A stretch of DNA of 43,543 nucleotides from Parcubacteria group bacterium GW2011_GWB1_45_10 (lineage in GTDB: Bacteria > Patescibacteriota > Minisyncoccia > UBA6257 > Brennerbacteraceae), in NCBI GenBank assembly GCA_001001185.1, contig LCKC01000006.1, forward strand, positions 1-43,543, given 5' to 3'. How positions within the stretch are numbered: the stretch's first letter is position 1; every line of letters starts with the position of its first letter. This document shows, piece after piece, positions 10,080 through 15,213 of the stretch. The position numbers were made by a program, and so were the translations under genes. The notes beneath the pieces were generated by a model that was not told the DNA's origin, did no database searches, and saw only the letters and a list, made by a program, of their open reading frames with translations.

Positions 10080-10173
10080 CCCGTTAGAAGTTCCGGAATG
10101 ACCGTTTAATTGAACATTCGAATAAAGTTTTTGTTTGTTTTGCTAATAACATATCAAAGAATAACGATTACTT
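10075..10173. repeat. 99-bp leader element, copy A (identical to 12930-13028)
   Basis: Base-by-base identity over 99 nt. It contains ATCCCGTTAGAA at the scpA start and overlaps the 3' end of secA. Confidence 0.95.
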
Positions 10174-12586
10174 TGATAAGCCTTCCCAAGCTCAAAAAAA
10201 TGTTCCAGGAAAAATTGTCCAGAAGCTCTTTGAACATTTTATGGCCTTCATGCTTGTATTCAGAGATTGGCTGATGCTGAGCGTAATTTCTCAACCTGAC
10301 GGTGTCGGTTAAGTGTTCCATTGCCTCAAGGTGGTCTGTCCAAAGAATGTCCATAATCTGGAGCAGTCCGACTCTCAAAAACTCCGGGTCTTTCATCTCG
10401 GTTTTTTCAAAGAAAAACTTGGCGACCGATTGTTTCAGACTTTCGGGAGAATCAAACTCGTTTTTCAGACTTTGTGACAGATTAGTCAATGAATCAAGTT
10501 CACGCCAAACCGCATCTTTGTCAAAAGTTTCGCGAACCCGGCTTGAAATAAACAGCTCAAGAGCTTCGTCAATGGTTTTTTTCATAATTTCCTTCAGCTT
10601 TCCGCTATCGGCCGCCAAAATCTCTTTTCGCTTCCGGTAAATGGCATCTCTTTGCTTGTTCAAAACATCGTCATATTCAAGAATGTATTTTCTGGTGTCA
10701 AAGTTCGCGCCTTCAACCTTTTGCTGGGCTGAATCAAGCGCCTTGGAAACAAACTCGCTTTCAATCGGCTGGTCTTCAGGAAGCTTTAATCTCTGAATCA
10801 AACCGCGGATTTTGTCCGAACCGAAGATTCTCATCAAGTCGTCTTCCAAAGAAACAAAAAAAGAGGTTGAACCCGGATCGCCTTGGCGGCCGGAACGCCC
10901 GCGGAGCTGATTGTCAATTCTTCTGGCTTCGTGCCTTTCCGTGCCAATGACGTGAAGTCCGCCAAGACTTTTTATCAAATCTGATTCTTCGGCGGTTGAA
11001 GGATTGCCGCCCAGGATAATGTCCACGCCGCGGCCAGCCATGTTCGTCGCCACCGTGACTGCGCCTTTTTTGCCGGCTTGGGCAATCACCTCGGCTTCTT
11101 TTTCGTGCTGCTTGGCGTTTAAAACATTATGAGAGACACCCTGTCTTTTGAGCAAAGCTGACAGATGCTCGTTTTTTTCAATCGAAACCGTGCCGATTAA
11201 AACCGGCTGGCCTTTTTCATGCTTGTCTTTAACTTCTTTTACCAGCCAGTCAAACTTCGCTTTTTCCGTGACAAAAATCTTGTCGGAAAAATCCTTCCTG
11301 ACCAAAGGCTTATTCGGCGGAATCGGCAAAACATCCAGAAAATAAACCTTGGCAAACTCTTCACTTGAGGTCAGGGCCGTGCCGGTCATGCCGGAAAGAA
11401 TCTGATACATCCTGAAGTAATTCTGAATCGTGATGGTTGCTGAGGTCCGTGACTCTTCCTGGACGCGCAAGCCTTCTTTGGCTTCAATCGCTTGGTGCAG
11501 GCCGCCCGAATACCTCCGGCCGTGCATCAACCTGCCGGTGAACTCGTCGACAATGACGACTTCGCCGTCTTTGACAACGTAATTTTTGTCCCGCTTGAAC
11601 AAAAAATAAGCTTTCAAAGACTCTTCAAGGTGGTGAACCAAAACCAGATTATTGTCTTCGTAAATATCCCGGCCAAAAAGATCTTTGATTCTTTCAATCC
11701 CGGAATCCGTCAAAAACACAGAGTGCTTTTTTTCGTCAATCTCAACGTCTTTTTCCGCGTTCAAGCGGGGAACCGCCAAGGCAAACTCCCGATAAATCTT
11801 GGCGGCGTCCATGTCGGGCGAAGCAATAATCAAAGGCGTTCGGGCTTCGTCAATCAAAATACTGTCAACTTCGTCAATAATCGCAAAATAAAGCTCGCGC
11901 TGGGCCAGGTCGTCTTTCCGGTAAACCAAATTGTCTCTGAGGTAATCAAAACCGAACTGATGGTTGGTGCCATAGACAATCTCGGCCTGATAAACTTCTC
12001 TTCTTGAAACCGGCCTCAAAAAATCGTGAAAAACTTTGAAGCTGCCCAAGCTATCTCTTTGCCTGTCTTCCTGGGGTTCGCTCTTCCACTCGGGGTCGTA
12101 CAAAAAAGAGTTTTCATGGATCAAGCAGCCGACTTTGAGTCCCAAGAAGTGATAGATCTGTCCCATCCAAACCGTGTCACGCTGAGCCAGATAATCATTG
12201 ACCGTAATGATATGAACGCCCTTGCCGGTCAGGCCGTGAAGATAAGCCGGCAGGGTCGCGGCCAAAGTTTTGCCTTCGCCGGTTTTCATTTCCGCAATCT
12301 TCCCCTGGCTCAAAACCGCGCCGCCGACAATCTGCGAATCAAAATGTCTCTGGTTCAAAGTTCTTTTGGCGGCTTCCCTGACCAAAGCAAAAGCTTCCGG
12401 CATGAGCGTTTCCAGAGATTCGTTTTCCGCCCTTGCCTTCAACTCAAGGCTTTTTGCCTGAATCGCTTTGGCATCAAGCGAAGAAAAATCTTTTTCCAGT
12501 TCATTAACCGACTTAACCAAAGGCAAGAGCTTTTCAATCGCTTTTTGATTTGCGTCTTTAAAAATTGTTTTGAAAACTTTCAGCAC
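10154..12586 (-). CDS. secA: preprotein translocase ATPase SecA (no C-terminal Zn-finger tail)
   Basis: 810 aa. Motifs MKTGEGKTL, DEVDSILIDEARTPLIIS and TNMAGRGVDI. The GTG start abuts the hpf stop codon. Confidence 0.97.
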   Translation of the reverse strand: MLKVFKTIFKDANQKAIEKLLPLVKSVNELEKDFSSLDAKAIQAKSLELKARAENESLETLMPEAFALVREAAKRTLNQRHFDSQIVGGAVLSQGKIAEMKTGEGKTLAATLPAYLHGLTGKGVHIITVNDYLAQRDTVWMGQIYHFLGLKVGCLIHENSFLYDPEWKSEPQEDRQRDSLGSFKVFHDFLRPVSRREVYQAEIVYGTNHQFGFDYLRDNLVYRKDDLAQRELYFAIIDEVDSILIDEARTPLIIASPDMDAAKIYREFALAVPRLNAEKDVEIDEKKHSVFLTDSGIERIKDLFGRDIYEDNNLVLVHHLEESLKAYFLFKRDKNYVVKDGEVVIVDEFTGRLMHGRRYSGGLHQAIEAKEGLRVQEESRTSATITIQNYFRMYQILSGMTGTALTSSEEFAKVYFLDVLPIPPNKPLVRKDFSDKIFVTEKAKFDWLVKEVKDKHEKGQPVLIGTVSIEKNEHLSALLKRQGVSHNVLNAKQHEKEAEVIAQAGKKGAVTVATNMAGRGVDIILGGNPSTAEESDLIKSLGGLHVIGTERHEARRIDNQLRGRSGRQGDPGSTSFFVSLEDDLMRIFGSDKIRGLIQRLKLPEDQPIESEFVSKALDSAQQKVEGANFDTRKYILEYDDVLNKQRDAIYRKRKEILAADSGKLKEIMKKTIDEALELFISSRVRETFDKDAVWRELDSLTNLSQSLKNEFDSPESLKQSVAKFFFEKTEMKDPEFLRVGLLQIMDILWTDHLEAMEHLTDTVRLRNYAQHQPISEYKHEGHKMFKELLDNFSWNIFLSLGRLIKVIVIL

Positions 12587-12934
12587 TTATTTGGATTCTT
12601 TCAGCCGGCGAGCCTTGTCCCTTGACCCAACCAAAGATTTTTCTTTTTCGGTTTTCAGCTGCCTCAAAATCTCTGATTCAACCACATCAATCAAGGCGTA
12701 AACATCCTCGCCTTTTTCCTGGCTGCGGATTATTTTTGCCGGCAGGTAAAGGTTCAAAACCAGCTCCAGTCTTTCGCCTTCGCGGCGATGGGAGATTCTT
12801 GAGATGGAGACGTTAAATAAAAAGTTTTTGCCGAACCTTTTGGCGAACTTTTCAATCTTTTCAAGCTTTAAGTTCAGGTAGCTGCGGATCTGCGACGTGA
12901 GCGTAAAATCATTGCTTGAAATTTGAAGTTTCAT
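12587..12934 (-). CDS. hpf: ribosome hibernation promoting factor / RaiA family
   Basis: 115 aa, S30AE-like fold pattern, conserved position upstream of secA. Confidence 0.8.
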   Translation of the reverse strand: MKLQISSNDFTLTSQIRSYLNLKLEKIEKFAKRFGKNFLFNVSISRISHRREGERLELVLNLYLPAKIIRSQEKGEDVYALIDVVESEILRQLKTEKEKSLVGSRDKARRLKESK

Positions 12935-13028
12935 CCCGTTAGAAGTTCCGGAATGACCGTTTAATTGAACATTCGAATAAAGTTTTTGTTTGTTTTGCTA
13001 ATAACATATCAAAGAATAACGATTACTT
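12930..13028. repeat. 99-bp leader element, copy B
   Basis: Identical to 10075-10173 at an offset of 2855 bp. It is followed by a decayed distal arm, TTCGGGAC (13027-13034). Confidence 0.95.
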
Positions 13029-13051
13029 CGGGACTGGGTTAAGTGCTGAAA

Positions 13052-13174
13052 CTATCTTCTCTTGGCAGCTTTTCTTCTTCTTTTCGGGGCTGCCTTTTTC
13101 GCGGCTTTCTTGGCCGGGCGCCTTCTTTTTGGCGCCGCTTTTTTCGCCGCCGCTTTTCTTCTTCTTACGGGCAT
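13052..13174 (-). CDS. 40-aa Lys/Arg/Ala-repeat basic protein (histone H1-like composition)
   Basis: From the ATG at 13174: MPVRRRKAAAKKAAPKRRRPAKKAAKKAAPKRRRKAAKRR*, with KKAAPKRRR occurring twice. A putative promoter lies upstream. The TTG-extended 64-aa version is less likely. Confidence 0.45.
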   Translation of the reverse strand: MPVRRRKAAAKKAAPKRRRPAKKAAKKAAPKRRRKAAKRR

Positions 13175-13278
13175 GGTTTTGAATTTTTTAATTGATAAAC
13201 GCCGACCGATCCCGCCTTGCGAAGACTGAACGTTTACCACTGACAAACTTGGGAACCGAATTAATAACTTATATCTTA

Positions 13279-13307
13279 ATTTTAAAGATATAAATCATCT
13301 TTGACAA
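13279..13307 (-). promoter_or_regulatory. putative promoter for the basic-peptide/hpf/secA operon
   Basis: On the minus strand: TTGTCA (13307-13302), 17-nt spacer, TAAAAT (13284-13279). A perfect DnaA-box 9-mer TGTGGATAA lies at 13309-13317. Confidence 0.45.
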
Positions 13308-13499
13308 CTGTGGATAACTTTTTTTTAAAGATTTTTTCAAAAAAGTTTAAATCAAGAGAACGGTTGAGTTTCAAAAAACATGACTTTCTTGATGGTTAAA
13401 AATCAAAACCGCAAACCACAATCAAAGAAATCAAAAAACCGCCCGGAAAAAGAGGTTGGTTGACGTTTTTGGGGTTAGATTTTAAGAGGTCGGAAAGAA

Positions 13500-13528
13500 T
13501 TGCTTTGTTTTAAGCTTTTATTTATAAT
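13500..13528 (+). promoter_or_regulatory. putative promoter P1
   Basis: TTGCTT (13500-13505), 17-nt spacer, TATAAT (13523-13528). Confidence 0.45.
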
Positions 13529-13551
13529 GAGTTAACTCGGGATAAAAACGC

Positions 13552-13634
13552 CTGCTTGCTTCAACCCCTGCTGGACAGCACTCACTAAAATCATACGATA
13601 GGAGTAAACTTCCAGCAGGGATTCAAGCAAACAG
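13552..13634. other. long hairpin (24-position stem, 35-nt loop)
   Basis: Arms 13552-13575 and 13611-13634, 21/24 Watson-Crick pairs. Two of the three mismatches become G-U in minus-strand RNA, where the stem is followed by GCGTTTTTAT. Confidence 0.5.
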
Positions 13635-13672
13635 CTTTGATTGGTCAGTCCCACCCCAAATTGTCTGAAAGA

Positions 13673-13701
13673 TTGACTTTCCTTAAAAACCGTGCTATAA
13701 T
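13673..13701 (+). promoter_or_regulatory. near-consensus promoter P2 with extended -10
   Basis: TTGACT (13673-13678), 17-nt spacer ending in TGc, TATAAT (13696-13701). Confidence 0.65.
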
Positions 13702-13768
13702 GCCTTTTAGTGAGTGCCGTTCAATTAGTTGCGCAAGCAGCCAAGAGAACAGCTCCAATCGTATGTGA

Positions 13769-13799
13769 CTACGCTCCCGCTCTGCGGGAGCGTAGTTTT
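13769..13799 (+). terminator. strong intrinsic terminator inside the leader of 13834..15213
   Basis: 12-bp stem CTACGCTCCCGC/GCGGGAGCGTAG, loop TCT, then TTTT. It lies 35 nt before the ATG. Confidence 0.8.
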
Positions 13800-13833
13800 G
13801 TGATACGCAGATTTTTTTGCTATGATTGAATAA

Positions 13834-15213
13834 ATGTTGAAAAAATTCCTCCAAAAACAAATTCCTTTTTCCGCGGCTTTTCTGGTGATTTTAATGGTCA
13901 GTGCCCTGAGCGCTGGTTTGTTTTTCGTTTTCCGGAACAAAATCTACCAGTACCAGCTTTACCTGGTTGACAGTGAAAAACCGAGCTCCATTTTCAACCT
14001 GGAATACGGTTCTTTGCCAAAGATGAGTGAAGAAAGTTTTTTTCTGCGCATCAAAAACCAGTTAATCTCTGATAAAGCCAGCTTTATTGAAGCCAATCTG
14101 TCAGAAATGGAGTTGAAGTTTTTTGACCGGGGCCAGGAAACAAAAAAATTCAAAATCATCGGCAAGGGCCTGGATGGTTCCTGGTGGGAAACGCCGGCCG
14201 GAATCTACAAAATTGAAACCAAAGAAAAAGTTCATTTTTCCTCAATCGGCCAGGTTTACATGCCGTATTCAATGCAGTTCCAGGGAAACTTTTTCATCCA
14301 CGGCGTGCCTTATTATCCGGACGGCCGGGAAACCAATCTGAACTACACCGGCGGCTGCATTAAACTTTTGACCAAAGACGCCCGGGAAATTTTTGAGCTG
14401 AGCAGTCTCGGCATCCCGGTTTTGGTTTTTGAAAAAGATTTCCAGAAAGACGGATTCGTCCATGAAGTCCAGGCGCCGAAAGTTTCCGCCCAGTCTTACT
14501 TGGCCGCCGACCTGAAAAACAACTTTGTTTTCTTTGAAAAAAATTCCAGCTCGGTTCTGCCGATTGCTTCGCTGACAAAACTGATGACCGCTGTCATTGC
14601 CACGGAGTACGTTAATCTTGAAAAAGAAATCGAGGTCACCCAGGCAATGCTCGCACCGACCTCGGTACCGCGGCTGAAGATCGGACAAACCTACAAAGCC
14701 TACGACCTGCTTTTCCCTTTGATGACTGAATCGTCAAACGAAGCGGCCCAGGCTTTAAGTTATTTTCTCGGCCCGCAAATGTTTGTTGAGCTGATGAACA
14801 AAAAAGCCGAATCTTTAGATATGGAGTCAACGGTGTTTGCCGATTCTTCGGGCATCAGCCCGGTTTCCGCGGCCAGCGCCAAAAACCTGTTTTCCCTGGC
14901 AAAATACCTTTATTTCAACCGCCAGTTCGTGTTAAGCCTCACCAACAACTCTATTGATACCTCAGTCTACGGTGCGCCGAAGTTCAGCTATTTATCAAAC
15001 TTCAACAAGCCAGGAAATAGCTCATCAATCTGGAAACAATTTGTCGGCGGCAAAATCGGACTGACCAAAGCCAGCGAGCAGACAATTGTCTCTGTTTTTG
15101 AGCTTGAGCTGAAAAACGAAAAGCGGCCGGTGGCGATTATTGTCCTTGGTTCAAACAACAACTTCAAAGACGTTGAGGAGATAATTTCCAGGATAAAAAC
15201 TTTTTATGAATAA
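13834..15213 (+). CDS. L,D-transpeptidase (YkuD) fused to a D-alanyl-D-alanine carboxypeptidase (S11)
   Basis: 459 aa with an N-terminal TM segment. YkuD motif is HG...(x17)...TGGCIKL. The S11 motifs are SLTK, SSN and KIGLT (a KTG-like variant). Confidence 0.85.
   Translation: MLKKFLQKQIPFSAAFLVILMVSALSAGLFFVFRNKIYQYQLYLVDSEKPSSIFNLEYGSLPKMSEESFFLRIKNQLISDKASFIEANLSEMELKFFDRGQETKKFKIIGKGLDGSWWETPAGIYKIETKEKVHFSSIGQVYMPYSMQFQGNFFIHGVPYYPDGRETNLNYTGGCIKLLTKDAREIFELSSLGIPVLVFEKDFQKDGFVHEVQAPKVSAQSYLAADLKNNFVFFEKNSSSVLPIASLTKLMTAVIATEYVNLEKEIEVTQAMLAPTSVPRLKIGQTYKAYDLLFPLMTESSNEAAQALSYFLGPQMFVELMNKKAESLDMESTVFADSSGISPVSAASAKNLFSLAKYLYFNRQFVLSLTNNSIDTSVYGAPKFSYLSNFNKPGNSSSIWKQFVGGKIGLTKASEQTIVSVFELELKNEKRPVAIIVLGSNNNFKDVEEIISRIKTFYE

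Follow-up and report, generated by a model that had tools for sequence, protein, structure and literature searches.

Upstream of a gene that fuses YkuD (L,D-transpeptidase) and Peptidase_S11 domains (Ldt/Dac; positions 13834 to 15213, plus strand, assigned by Pfam matches and orthologues), Parcubacteria group bacterium GW2011_GWB1_45_10 has a 660-nucleotide (nt) intergenic gap with promoter-like sites, a long hairpin and an intrinsic terminator. Does this region form a regulatory leader of the Ldt/Dac gene, or does it encode small RNAs of its own? The original prediction, made from this sequence alone, had left both possibilities standing. We examined them in contig LCKC01000006.1 of assembly GCA_001001185.1, whose whole 43,543 nt are called the window here, and in related genomes. 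The window is contig C6 of a 0.5-Mb genome (G000) that is assembled in 25 contigs and estimated to be 93% complete; relatives, their families and individual loci carry G, f and L numbers. Comparative sequence analysis supports two units, RNA1 and RNA2, that are conserved, single-copy and linked, and a two-part complementarity that covaries between them. We think it rather probable that these two neighboring small-RNA genes form a dedicated base-pairing pair, in which RNA2 acts in trans as an antisense RNA on RNA1.

Two small-RNA genes are predicted in the gap

RNA1 (13549 to 13640, plus strand) is a predicted hairpin RNA of a conserved single-copy family, delimited by covariance models and by its fold. 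As had been noted from the sequence alone, its stem is an inverted repeat of 24 positions, with a 5' arm at 13552 to 13575, a 3' arm at 13611 to 13634 (88% complementary) and 35 nt between them. The loop holds a conserved stretch, AGCACUCACU...AGGAGUA (13577 to 13606), which alignments and predicted duplexes point to as the pairing surface for RNA2 and within which ACUC (13580 to 13583) and GAGU (13602 to 13605) form a small helix. The predicted fold has an energy of -35.2 kcal/mol (z score, -5.7), equaled by none of 200 shuffled sequences. The promoter-like site P1 lies upstream and consists of TTGCTT (13500 to 13505), a 17-nt spacer and TATAAT (13523 to 13528). Its -35 hexamer matches TTGACA at three of six positions, and P1 was missing from our consensus scan because this weak hexamer puts the site under the threshold. 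In G001, G006 and other inspected loci, a promoter-like site likewise lies close 5' of the homologous hairpin.

RNA2 is a predicted small RNA of ~92 nt (~13705 to 13799, plus strand) supported by its fold and by a match to the RNA2 model R2 at 13706 to 13799. Its promoter P2, TTGACT-17-TGcTATAAT (13673 to 13701), has 11 of 12 consensus matches and an upstream TG and is the best promoter-like site of the region in the consensus scan. Both promoters of the original prediction are present in the sequence. The transcript probably starts near 13708, ~7 nt past the -10 element. It would comprise segment A (13705 to 13723), an internal hairpin (13719 to 13750 in the minimum-free-energy fold), segment B (13753 to 13765) and an intrinsic terminator (13768 to 13799) with 13 perfect pairs (13768 to 13780 with 13784 to 13796), a 3-nt loop and TTTT. 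The fold energy is -42 kcal/mol (z score, -5.3; none of 200 shuffles as good). A terminator had been expected in front of the ATG and is there; it was described as having 12 bp and ending 35 nt from the start codon, and we compute 13 bp and 38 nt from the end of the stem to the ATG at 13834.

Relatives have units of the same plan: a promoter close to consensus, its -10 element extended, then the 5' segment AAGUGAGUG, a hairpin (present between segments A and B in every inspected RNA2 homolog), a second pairing segment and a terminator. A P2 equivalent, TTGAYT-17-TGCTAyAaT, precedes RNA2 in G001, G006, G002, G004 and G005. The small RNA of ~92 nt from P2 to the terminator, one of the two possibilities first raised, is thereby borne out as a recurring sequence unit.

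In several families (loci L121 to L128, L085 and L091) a conserved element, CGAUGAUAUCGA, which is palindromic in part and flanked by UUCC...GGAA, lies in the RNA2 internal hairpin. The element is unpaired with RNA1 and is missing from the RNA2 of the window; it could be a protein site or a dimerization site.

RNA1 is a conserved single-copy family

RNA1 was modeled with two covariance models, R1 from 11 sequences and, later, R3 from 30; all E values in this work came from a shortened calibration. The genomes are a sample: 151 from the order of the window, 139 of them of good quality, and 146 from the other orders of the class. RNA1 of the window scores 60.2 bits with R1 and 49.3 bits with R3. 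R1 matched 63 of the 151 genomes, with a single match in each except G097, and 29 of the 146 from other orders. R3 matched 114 of the 151 (106 of the 139 of good quality), again once per genome, with a weak second match in G008.

The stem is conserved as structure. G001 and G006 differ wholly from the window in the sequence of the hairpin stem and retain its pairing, and in the 30-sequence alignment, which was fitted to the model and favors structure somewhat, all 11 modeled pairs show changes on both sides. In that alignment 92.7% of stem cells were paired, compared with 69.1% in shuffles (none of 500 as high) and 29 to 57% when the partner was slid. The loop is conserved as sequence, with the near-invariant words AGCACUCAC/G... 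and ...GGAGU; ACUC and GAGU each occur in 29 to 30 of the 30 homologs. The open reading frame (ORF) lists held no conserved ORF in RNA1, and stem positions covary as base pairs.

At two loci from other orders, L117 (G526) and L120 (G499), the 5' part of the loop (GAGCUGGCACUCA...) is repeated in the same sense upstream of RNA1, and this extra copy is split by an inserted GC-rich hairpin. These genomes are larger and richer in GC, and their RNA1 locus may be more elaborate.

RNA1 and RNA2 are complementary at two segments that change in step

Positions 13578 to 13590 of the RNA1 loop are an exact complement of 13705 to 13717, the 13-nt match that the original prediction had noted, and the complementarity extends to 17 of 19 positions (13572 to 13590 with 13705 to 13723, segment A; predicted duplex energy, -19.8 kcal/mol). 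A second complementarity joins 13592 to 13604 with segment B (13753 to 13765) at 12 of 13 positions (-18.8 kcal/mol). Almost from end to end, the RNA1 loop finds a complement in the P2 transcript, in two segments on either side of that transcript's internal hairpin.

Because a single 13-mer complement is not unique in the genome, we gave weight to the match having two parts and to relatives conserving it. Loop-complementary 13-mers also occur at C3:12345 and C3:34435 (contig C3 of G000). Both lie within coding regions and share one segment only, and we rejected them as further partners and read them as chance. In a genome-wide duplex scan with the RNA1 loop, single-segment energies of -28 to -31 kcal/mol arose by chance, and the two-part site lies outside the model of the tool. 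In G000, the one whole genome scanned for it, the word GCACTCACT occurs at RNA1 and, on the antisense strand, at RNA2, and nowhere else.

Both complementarities are altered in step across G000, G001 and G006. Summed duplex energies were -38.6, -35.8 and -36.4 kcal/mol for the genomes' own pairs and -23.7 to -32.0 kcal/mol for cross pairs. In a set of 21 genomes, own pairs averaged -32.8 kcal/mol and cross pairs -23.4 kcal/mol, with none of 20,000 permutations as good; permutation figures here give a direction and not probabilities, because related genomes are not independent. RNA2 was picked in this set as the best binder among candidates, a selection whose bias should be small because criteria blind to the loop (-10 box, core word and terminator) usually leave one candidate per 3-kb locus. 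Where RNA2 was placed by the model alone (eight genomes), the means were -30.1 kcal/mol for own and -25.4 kcal/mol for cross pairs, and 16 of 20,000 permutations were as good.

RNA2 travels with RNA1 in varying arrangements

In most matched genomes the two units stay together. R2, built from 19 sequences, matched 57 of the 151 genomes of the order, and by coordinate comparison the match lies within ~650 nt of RNA1 in 42 of these; 17 of the 42 had contributed to training R2 and 25 were new. RNA2 adjoins RNA1 in eight of nine examined loci from other orders. The arrangement varies. G001, of the same genus, has its parts in the order of the window, and in G006, of the same family, RNA1 and RNA2 are ~610 nt apart, each with a near-consensus promoter and with a 97-amino-acid (aa) ORF between them. 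RNA2 lies on the strand opposite RNA1, in convergent orientation, in G144 and in three members of the window's family f1, G002, G004 and G005; in each of these three it has a TTGATT-17-TGCTAyAaT promoter and its own terminator. Most other families have RNA2 130 to 230 nt upstream of RNA1 on the same strand, in the order RNA2, RNA1, murB.

Because the RNA genes can lie on opposite strands, the conserved pairing is one between two molecules. The regions upstream of the Ldt/Dac orthologs, whose comparison had been proposed as a check, preserve the complementarities in G001 and G006, as two units. The long-range complementarity first noticed is thus real and conserved, and what it joins are two RNAs with separate predicted transcription, not parts of one leader.

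That RNA2 is confined to the window's family was considered and refuted, since genomes of family f21 carry RNA2 upstream of RNA1. Patterns for exact or near-exact complements had found nothing in five f21 genomes, because pairing there runs through G-U pairs (AAGUGGGUG).

RNA1 precedes murB or hpf in many relatives

The gene context of RNA1 was examined at 30 loci by Pfam, blastp and sequence. At 18 of them RNA1 is followed by MurB (blastp E < 1e-79 to Pfam-confirmed members), whose start codon lies 0 to 37 nt past the hairpin. Four loci have HPF (S30AE), followed by SecA where seen (two by Pfam, the rest by blastp or likeness), a further locus, in G134, has HPF by N-terminal likeness, and one has GlyA (Pfam). 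In G000 and G001 RNA2 and Ldt/Dac follow, and in G006 a 97-aa coiled-coil ORF. RNA1 is followed by a terminator and a convergent gene, with no gene of its own, in G033 and G059, and by none detected in an ORF scan in G004. In G002 and G005, which were examined separately, RNA1 ends in a terminator, and no ORF follows. The genes upstream of RNA1 vary and include a sugar transferase, a GtrA-like protein, a mechanosensitive channel and a flavin adenine dinucleotide (FAD) oxidase. No murB was found in G000 by tblastn with five MurB queries at 1e-5 or with the G006 MurB at an E value of 10; in an assembly that is 93% complete, the gene may simply be unassembled.

The hpf-linked leaders of family f24 (loci L089, L082, L091, L122 and L121; genomes G056, G079, G134, G099 and G149) contain a downstream copy of the RNA1 5' arm. 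In all five folded leaders the minimum-energy structure of the complete leader pairs the 3' arm of RNA1 with this copy; only in G099 does UUUUU follow the alternative hairpin. From this layout we infer the logic of antisense-controlled attenuation: by capturing the loop together with the upper 5' arm, RNA2 would block the RNA1 stem and let the alternative hairpin form. In the inspected murB-linked leaders, no alternative hairpin or other expression platform was seen by eye. There, and in the window, RNA2 might expose the duplex to cleavage or remove a 5' hairpin that protects the transcript; the RNA pair may also have a role other than regulating its neighbor.

A proposed trans-acting antisense RNA and its partner

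We propose the following model. RNA1 would be transcribed from P1 and fold into a long hairpin with a conserved loop of ~30 nt; in most relatives it would be the 5' end of a murB or hpf-secA transcript, and in G000 and some family members it would stand alone. RNA2 would run from P2 to its terminator, and its segments A and B would pair with both halves of the RNA1 loop, over 13 + 13 bp in the window. RNA2 has the predicted features of a trans-acting small RNA, namely, a promoter, an intrinsic terminator and a conserved single-stranded pairing segment, and with its near-consensus promoter, 5' pairing segment and terminator it therefore looks like a dedicated trans-acting antisense.

Taken by itself, RNA2 can pair GAGU of segment A with (A/G)CUC of segment B, mirroring the ACUC/GAGU helix of the RNA1 loop. 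Since each RNA alone closes a helix of this type, pairing would swap helices and should give a four-helix junction, made up of the RNA1 stem, helix A, the RNA2 hairpin and helix B. Such an exchange would explain the near-invariant ACUC and GAGU words, because a change in them needs four coordinated substitutions. By opening or remodeling RNA1, RNA2 would set the fate of the transcripts that RNA1 leads, whether through alternative folding, duplex cleavage or stability.

Several points weigh against this reading. The promoters, both transcripts and their ends are predicted from sequence. Of the sequencing runs listed for 13300 to 14300, ten are DNA runs that contain all or part of this region, and none is an RNA run. 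The four-way junction is our model and not a computed structure, and a closed RNA1 loop cannot make one straight 30-bp helix. R2 is a sequence-only model, because the MAFFT alignment was poor beyond the 5' segment and RNAalifold returned no consensus pairs. In 15 of the 57 genomes with an R2 match, the match lies apart from RNA1, being weak and partial, on another contig or distant (64 kb from RNA1 in G066 and 3.5 kb in G084). Sampled genomes of f7 (0 of 7), f10 (0 of 7) and f14 (0 of 4) have no R3 match to RNA1. Among the eight genomes in which RNA2 was placed by the model alone, the own RNA2 was the best partner in two of eight rows, because the loops in that set are alike. In the window, neither an alternative hairpin nor an ORF was found behind RNA1, and a regulatory output in G000 is therefore not evident. 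Finally, folding energy does not settle the strand of RNA1: the window hairpin has -48.8 kcal/mol on the minus strand and -35.2 kcal/mol on the plus strand, and the minus strand is better by 8 to 14 kcal/mol in G000, G001 and G006 because C-A mismatches turn into G-U pairs there; among 30 homologs the plus strand is better in 17, with G-U counts of 65 on each strand. The plus-strand assignment of RNA1 rests on the predicted promoters, on continuity with murB and on the complementarity to RNA2.

The pair matches no Rfam 15 family

The original prediction could not place the region in a known riboswitch class, and covariance searches agree. At gathering scores, Rfam 15 matched five tRNAs and nothing else in the window; over positions 12700 to 14000 at E ≤ 10, all hits were to eukaryotic or unrelated families, the best with 21.6 bits against a cutoff of 90; and eight RNA2-RNA1 tandem loci at E ≤ 1 gave nothing on either RNA. 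A full-text literature search, judged on its result entries, returned nothing on such an RNA pair or on small RNAs of this radiation. Relative to Rfam 15 the RNA1/RNA2 family is new; antisense pairing as a class of mechanism is known.

Several known RNAs were considered and rejected. 6S RNA is a hairpin of ~180 nt with a large central bubble; no RF00013 match was found in G000, and RNA1, at ~90 nt, has a terminal loop and no two-stranded bubble. G000 encodes transfer-messenger RNA (tmRNA) at C12:2729-3100 and RNase P RNA at C11:8332-8719, and RNA1 and RNA2 are therefore not pieces of them. For a type I toxin-antitoxin pair, there is no conserved small toxin ORF, and the stem covaries as base pairs.

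The RNA of the signal recognition particle (SRP; 4.5S RNA) was also rejected. RF00169 had no match in G000 (E ≤ 1) or in G001, G006, G053, G033 and G150 (E ≤ 10), in a search whose controls matched in 13 of 14 genomes. Nor were Ffh and FtsY found: PF02978 had no match in G000, PF00448 had none above the cutoff in five genomes (a weak match in G006 is, by sequence, a secretion ATPase), TIGR00959 (ffh) had none in 31 relatives from the order or in 61 genomes across the phylum, and the GTPase motif DTAGR occurred in no open frame of G000. Across the searches for SRP parts, controls matched in 13 to 14 of 14 known genomes. SRP parts went unfound in G000, the 31 relatives and the 61-genome phylum sample; SecA is encoded in the window. 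If real, the absence of SRP parts would be a lineage-wide loss of a near-universal pathway.

Alternative explanations for two paired RNAs

RNA1 and RNA2 might instead make up, between them, a single RNA with a structural or housekeeping role, such as the RNA component of some unknown protein complex; their pairing would then assemble the functional particle and not regulate a gene nearby. The single-copy presence of RNA1 in about three-quarters of the order's sampled genomes, and in other orders too, suits such a role, as does a gene linkage that outlasts changes in flanking genes and orientation. The pair is also kept in genomes in which RNA1 ends in a terminator of its own and lacks a downstream ORF (G002, G005, G033 and G059), the RNA2 internal hairpin has a conserved CGAUGAUAUCG in several families that is unpaired with RNA1, and a second RNA2 target was not found in G000. 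However, there is no consistently adjacent candidate gene or known partner protein, RNA1 directly abuts the start codon of murB in 18 of the 30 loci, as is typical of leaders, the pair was not found in the sampled genomes of f7, f10 and f14, and the alternative hairpins of hpf-linked leaders suggest a switch. We regard this explanation as unlikely.

A riboswitch-like or protein-binding leader, with a ligand or factor bound by the RNA1 loop and with RNA2 as a mimic or competitor for the site, would account for the near invariance of the loop and for the position of RNA1 at the predicted 5' ends of murB, hpf or glyA transcripts, and the alternative hairpin of f24 could serve as its expression platform. 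The invariant loop nucleotides, however, pair with the equally conserved 5' end of RNA2 and form the mirrored helix, which is enough to explain their conservation. Rfam gave no riboswitch match; a platform-like hairpin is confined to f24, with no platform visible by eye in murB-linked leaders; and the downstream genes (murB, hpf, glyA and Ldt/Dac) are functionally mixed and missing in several genomes. A ligand- or factor-binding leader is improbable on this evidence.

The Ldt/Dac gene is a neighbor of the RNA pair

The reading of the region as one cis-acting leader, transcribed from P1 or P2, with intramolecular pairing and with attenuation of Ldt/Dac at the 13768 to 13799 terminator, corresponds to the attenuator or riboswitch of the original prediction. 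The order RNA1, RNA2, Ldt/Dac on one strand with short spacers in G000 and G001 fits it, and no terminator lies between P1 and 13768, so one molecule with both elements is possible. A full-length Ldt/Dac ortholog was found in 13 genomes, but the RNA pair adjoins it in just four (G000, G001, G006 and G002), all of family f1. RNA1 and Ldt/Dac are on different contigs in eight (G023, G033, G037, G010, G032, G030, G017 and G024), G003 has the ortholog without an RNA1 match, and the RNA2 of G002 is encoded downstream of Ldt/Dac and on the other strand from RNA1. Neither the inverted RNA2 of the convergent genomes nor the RNA2 upstream of RNA1 in most other families fits a single leader. A 3-nt gap separates segment B from the terminator stem, and pairing would therefore leave that stem intact.

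In addition, a promoter-like site P3, TTGTGA-17-TGcTATGAT (13798 to 13826, plus strand), was found by the consensus scan between the terminator and the ATG. Since P3 ends 7 nt before the ATG, Ldt/Dac may be transcribed alone and almost leaderless; similar sites with an extended -10 element appear, by inspection, in the same position in G001 and G006. The Ldt/Dac gene is probably transcribed from P3, its own promoter, and on the distribution of its orthologs it is a neighbor of the pair, linkage to the RNAs being confined to the window's own family. An attenuating leader of Ldt/Dac is very improbable.

It is hardly credible that the hairpin acts on the minus strand or as DNA (whether by way of an antisense RNA, by termination on that strand or as an inverted repeat bound by a protein, with the likeness to RNA2 due to shared ancestry), for although the hairpin folds better on the minus strand in G000, G001 and G006, as the original prediction had anticipated, and would in the window end in a run of five U's, that run is missing in G001 and G006, no minus-strand promoter-like site lies right of the hairpin, the hairpin of other families has a plus-strand promoter and leads straight into murB, an inverted RNA2 keeps its RNA complementarity while the DNA relation shifts from inverted to direct repeat, and promoters, synteny and complementarity to RNA2 all leave the antisense or divergent RNA once suggested without support.

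Comparison with known systems

The dedicated antisense pair that we favor most resembles plasmid systems. The pT181 RNAI/repC leader, pIP501 RNAIII and R1 CopA/CopT are cases of countertranscript attenuation or kissing complexes of plasmids, and the stable CopA/CopT complex has been described as a four-helix junction. In these systems a small, strongly expressed RNA binds by base pairing to a loop in a structured 5' leader, as is predicted here for RNA2 and RNA1, and in the hpf-linked relatives the leader can form two mutually exclusive hairpins. In contrast to countertranscripts, which are antisense transcripts overlapping their target on the opposite strand, RNA2 is a separate, nonoverlapping neighbor gene of variable orientation, and the pair is chromosomal, single-copy and class-wide; it also has two pairing segments split by a hairpin, and most of its alternative hairpins lack a U-run terminator.

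The par (Fst) locus of pAD1, with its RNA I and RNA II, likewise has two small transcripts, which are convergent as in G002, G004 and G005, and adjacent or shared terminators with dispersed blocks of complementarity, as in the same three genomes. Unlike par, the present pair has no toxin ORF, a codon-blind covariation of the RNA1 stem and a variable orientation. With chromosomal small RNAs that act by base pairing and have sponges or decoys (such as GcvB/SroC and ChiX/chb spacer), RNA2 shares a predicted promoter of its own, an intrinsic terminator, a conserved 5' pairing segment and pairing in trans; it differs in that no further target was found in G000 and in that RNA2 is always accompanied by its partner gene. 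The raiA motif RNA, which precedes raiA/hpf in Firmicutes and Actinobacteria, is also a conserved noncoding RNA, comparable in position to the RNA before hpf-secA in f24. Rfam gave no match to either RNA in the window or in the eight tandem loci, and there are two RNAs here, each much smaller; any relation to the raiA motif RNA is speculation. A report on Staphylococcus aureus (bioRxiv 10.1101/2024.09.30.615890) describes a small RNA that acts on a riboswitch leader of a known metal class; the trans-acting RNA on a structured cis-acting leader is a likeness to the present pair, whereas no ligand or known class was found here.

Other features of the locus

Left of the gap lie secA (10154 to 12586) and hpf (Ribosomal_S30AE, 12587 to 12934), followed, between hpf and the RNA genes, by a 40-codon ORF on the minus strand (13052 to 13174) that encodes almost nothing but Lys, Arg, Ala and Pro. 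This basic ORF has no Pfam match and a promoter-like site at 13307 to 13279 (minus strand). A similar but longer basic ORF occupies the equivalent position in G001. Between the divergent promoters, the stretch from 13260 to 13440 is AT-rich by eye (~25 to 30% G+C) and contains small palindromes and two short direct repeats, TTTCAAAAAA and ATAxCTTxxTTTTAAAGAT, each present twice.

An exact 9-nt DnaA-box-like word, TTATCCACA, occurs at 13309 to 13317 (minus strand), 240 nt upstream of RNA1. In 86.6 kb of RNA1-flanking loci (L065 to L094), the 8-mer core of the DnaA box occurs 18 times, compared with 2.6 expected, and in 17 of the 30 loci, often within GTTATCCACAG and near RNA1 or immediately 3' of murB. 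Across the whole of G000 the core is not enriched (15 occurrences, with 15.1 expected). A replication origin was considered for the window and rejected, as there is no cluster of DnaA boxes (eight matches with at most one mismatch, with 6.6 expected).

Implications

A bolder interpretation, which we hold as a serious but doubtful possibility, is that RNA1 and RNA2 form an undescribed two-piece RNA with a bimolecular four-way junction, which could be the core of some unknown ribonucleoprotein or a master antisense switch through which cell-wall synthesis (murB) and ribosome hibernation (hpf) answer to one signal. If true, it would be a housekeeping-grade system specific to this radiation, a class-wide, single-copy linked pair in ultra-small bacteria. 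The covariance models and the covarying two-part pairing make the hypothesis of a dedicated pair directly testable, and the pair would offer a natural RNA-RNA interface whose coevolution can be read across hundreds of genomes. To our knowledge, the tiny-genome bacteria of groundwater have few protein regulators, and a conserved single-copy RNA pair would therefore be a rare handle on their regulation.

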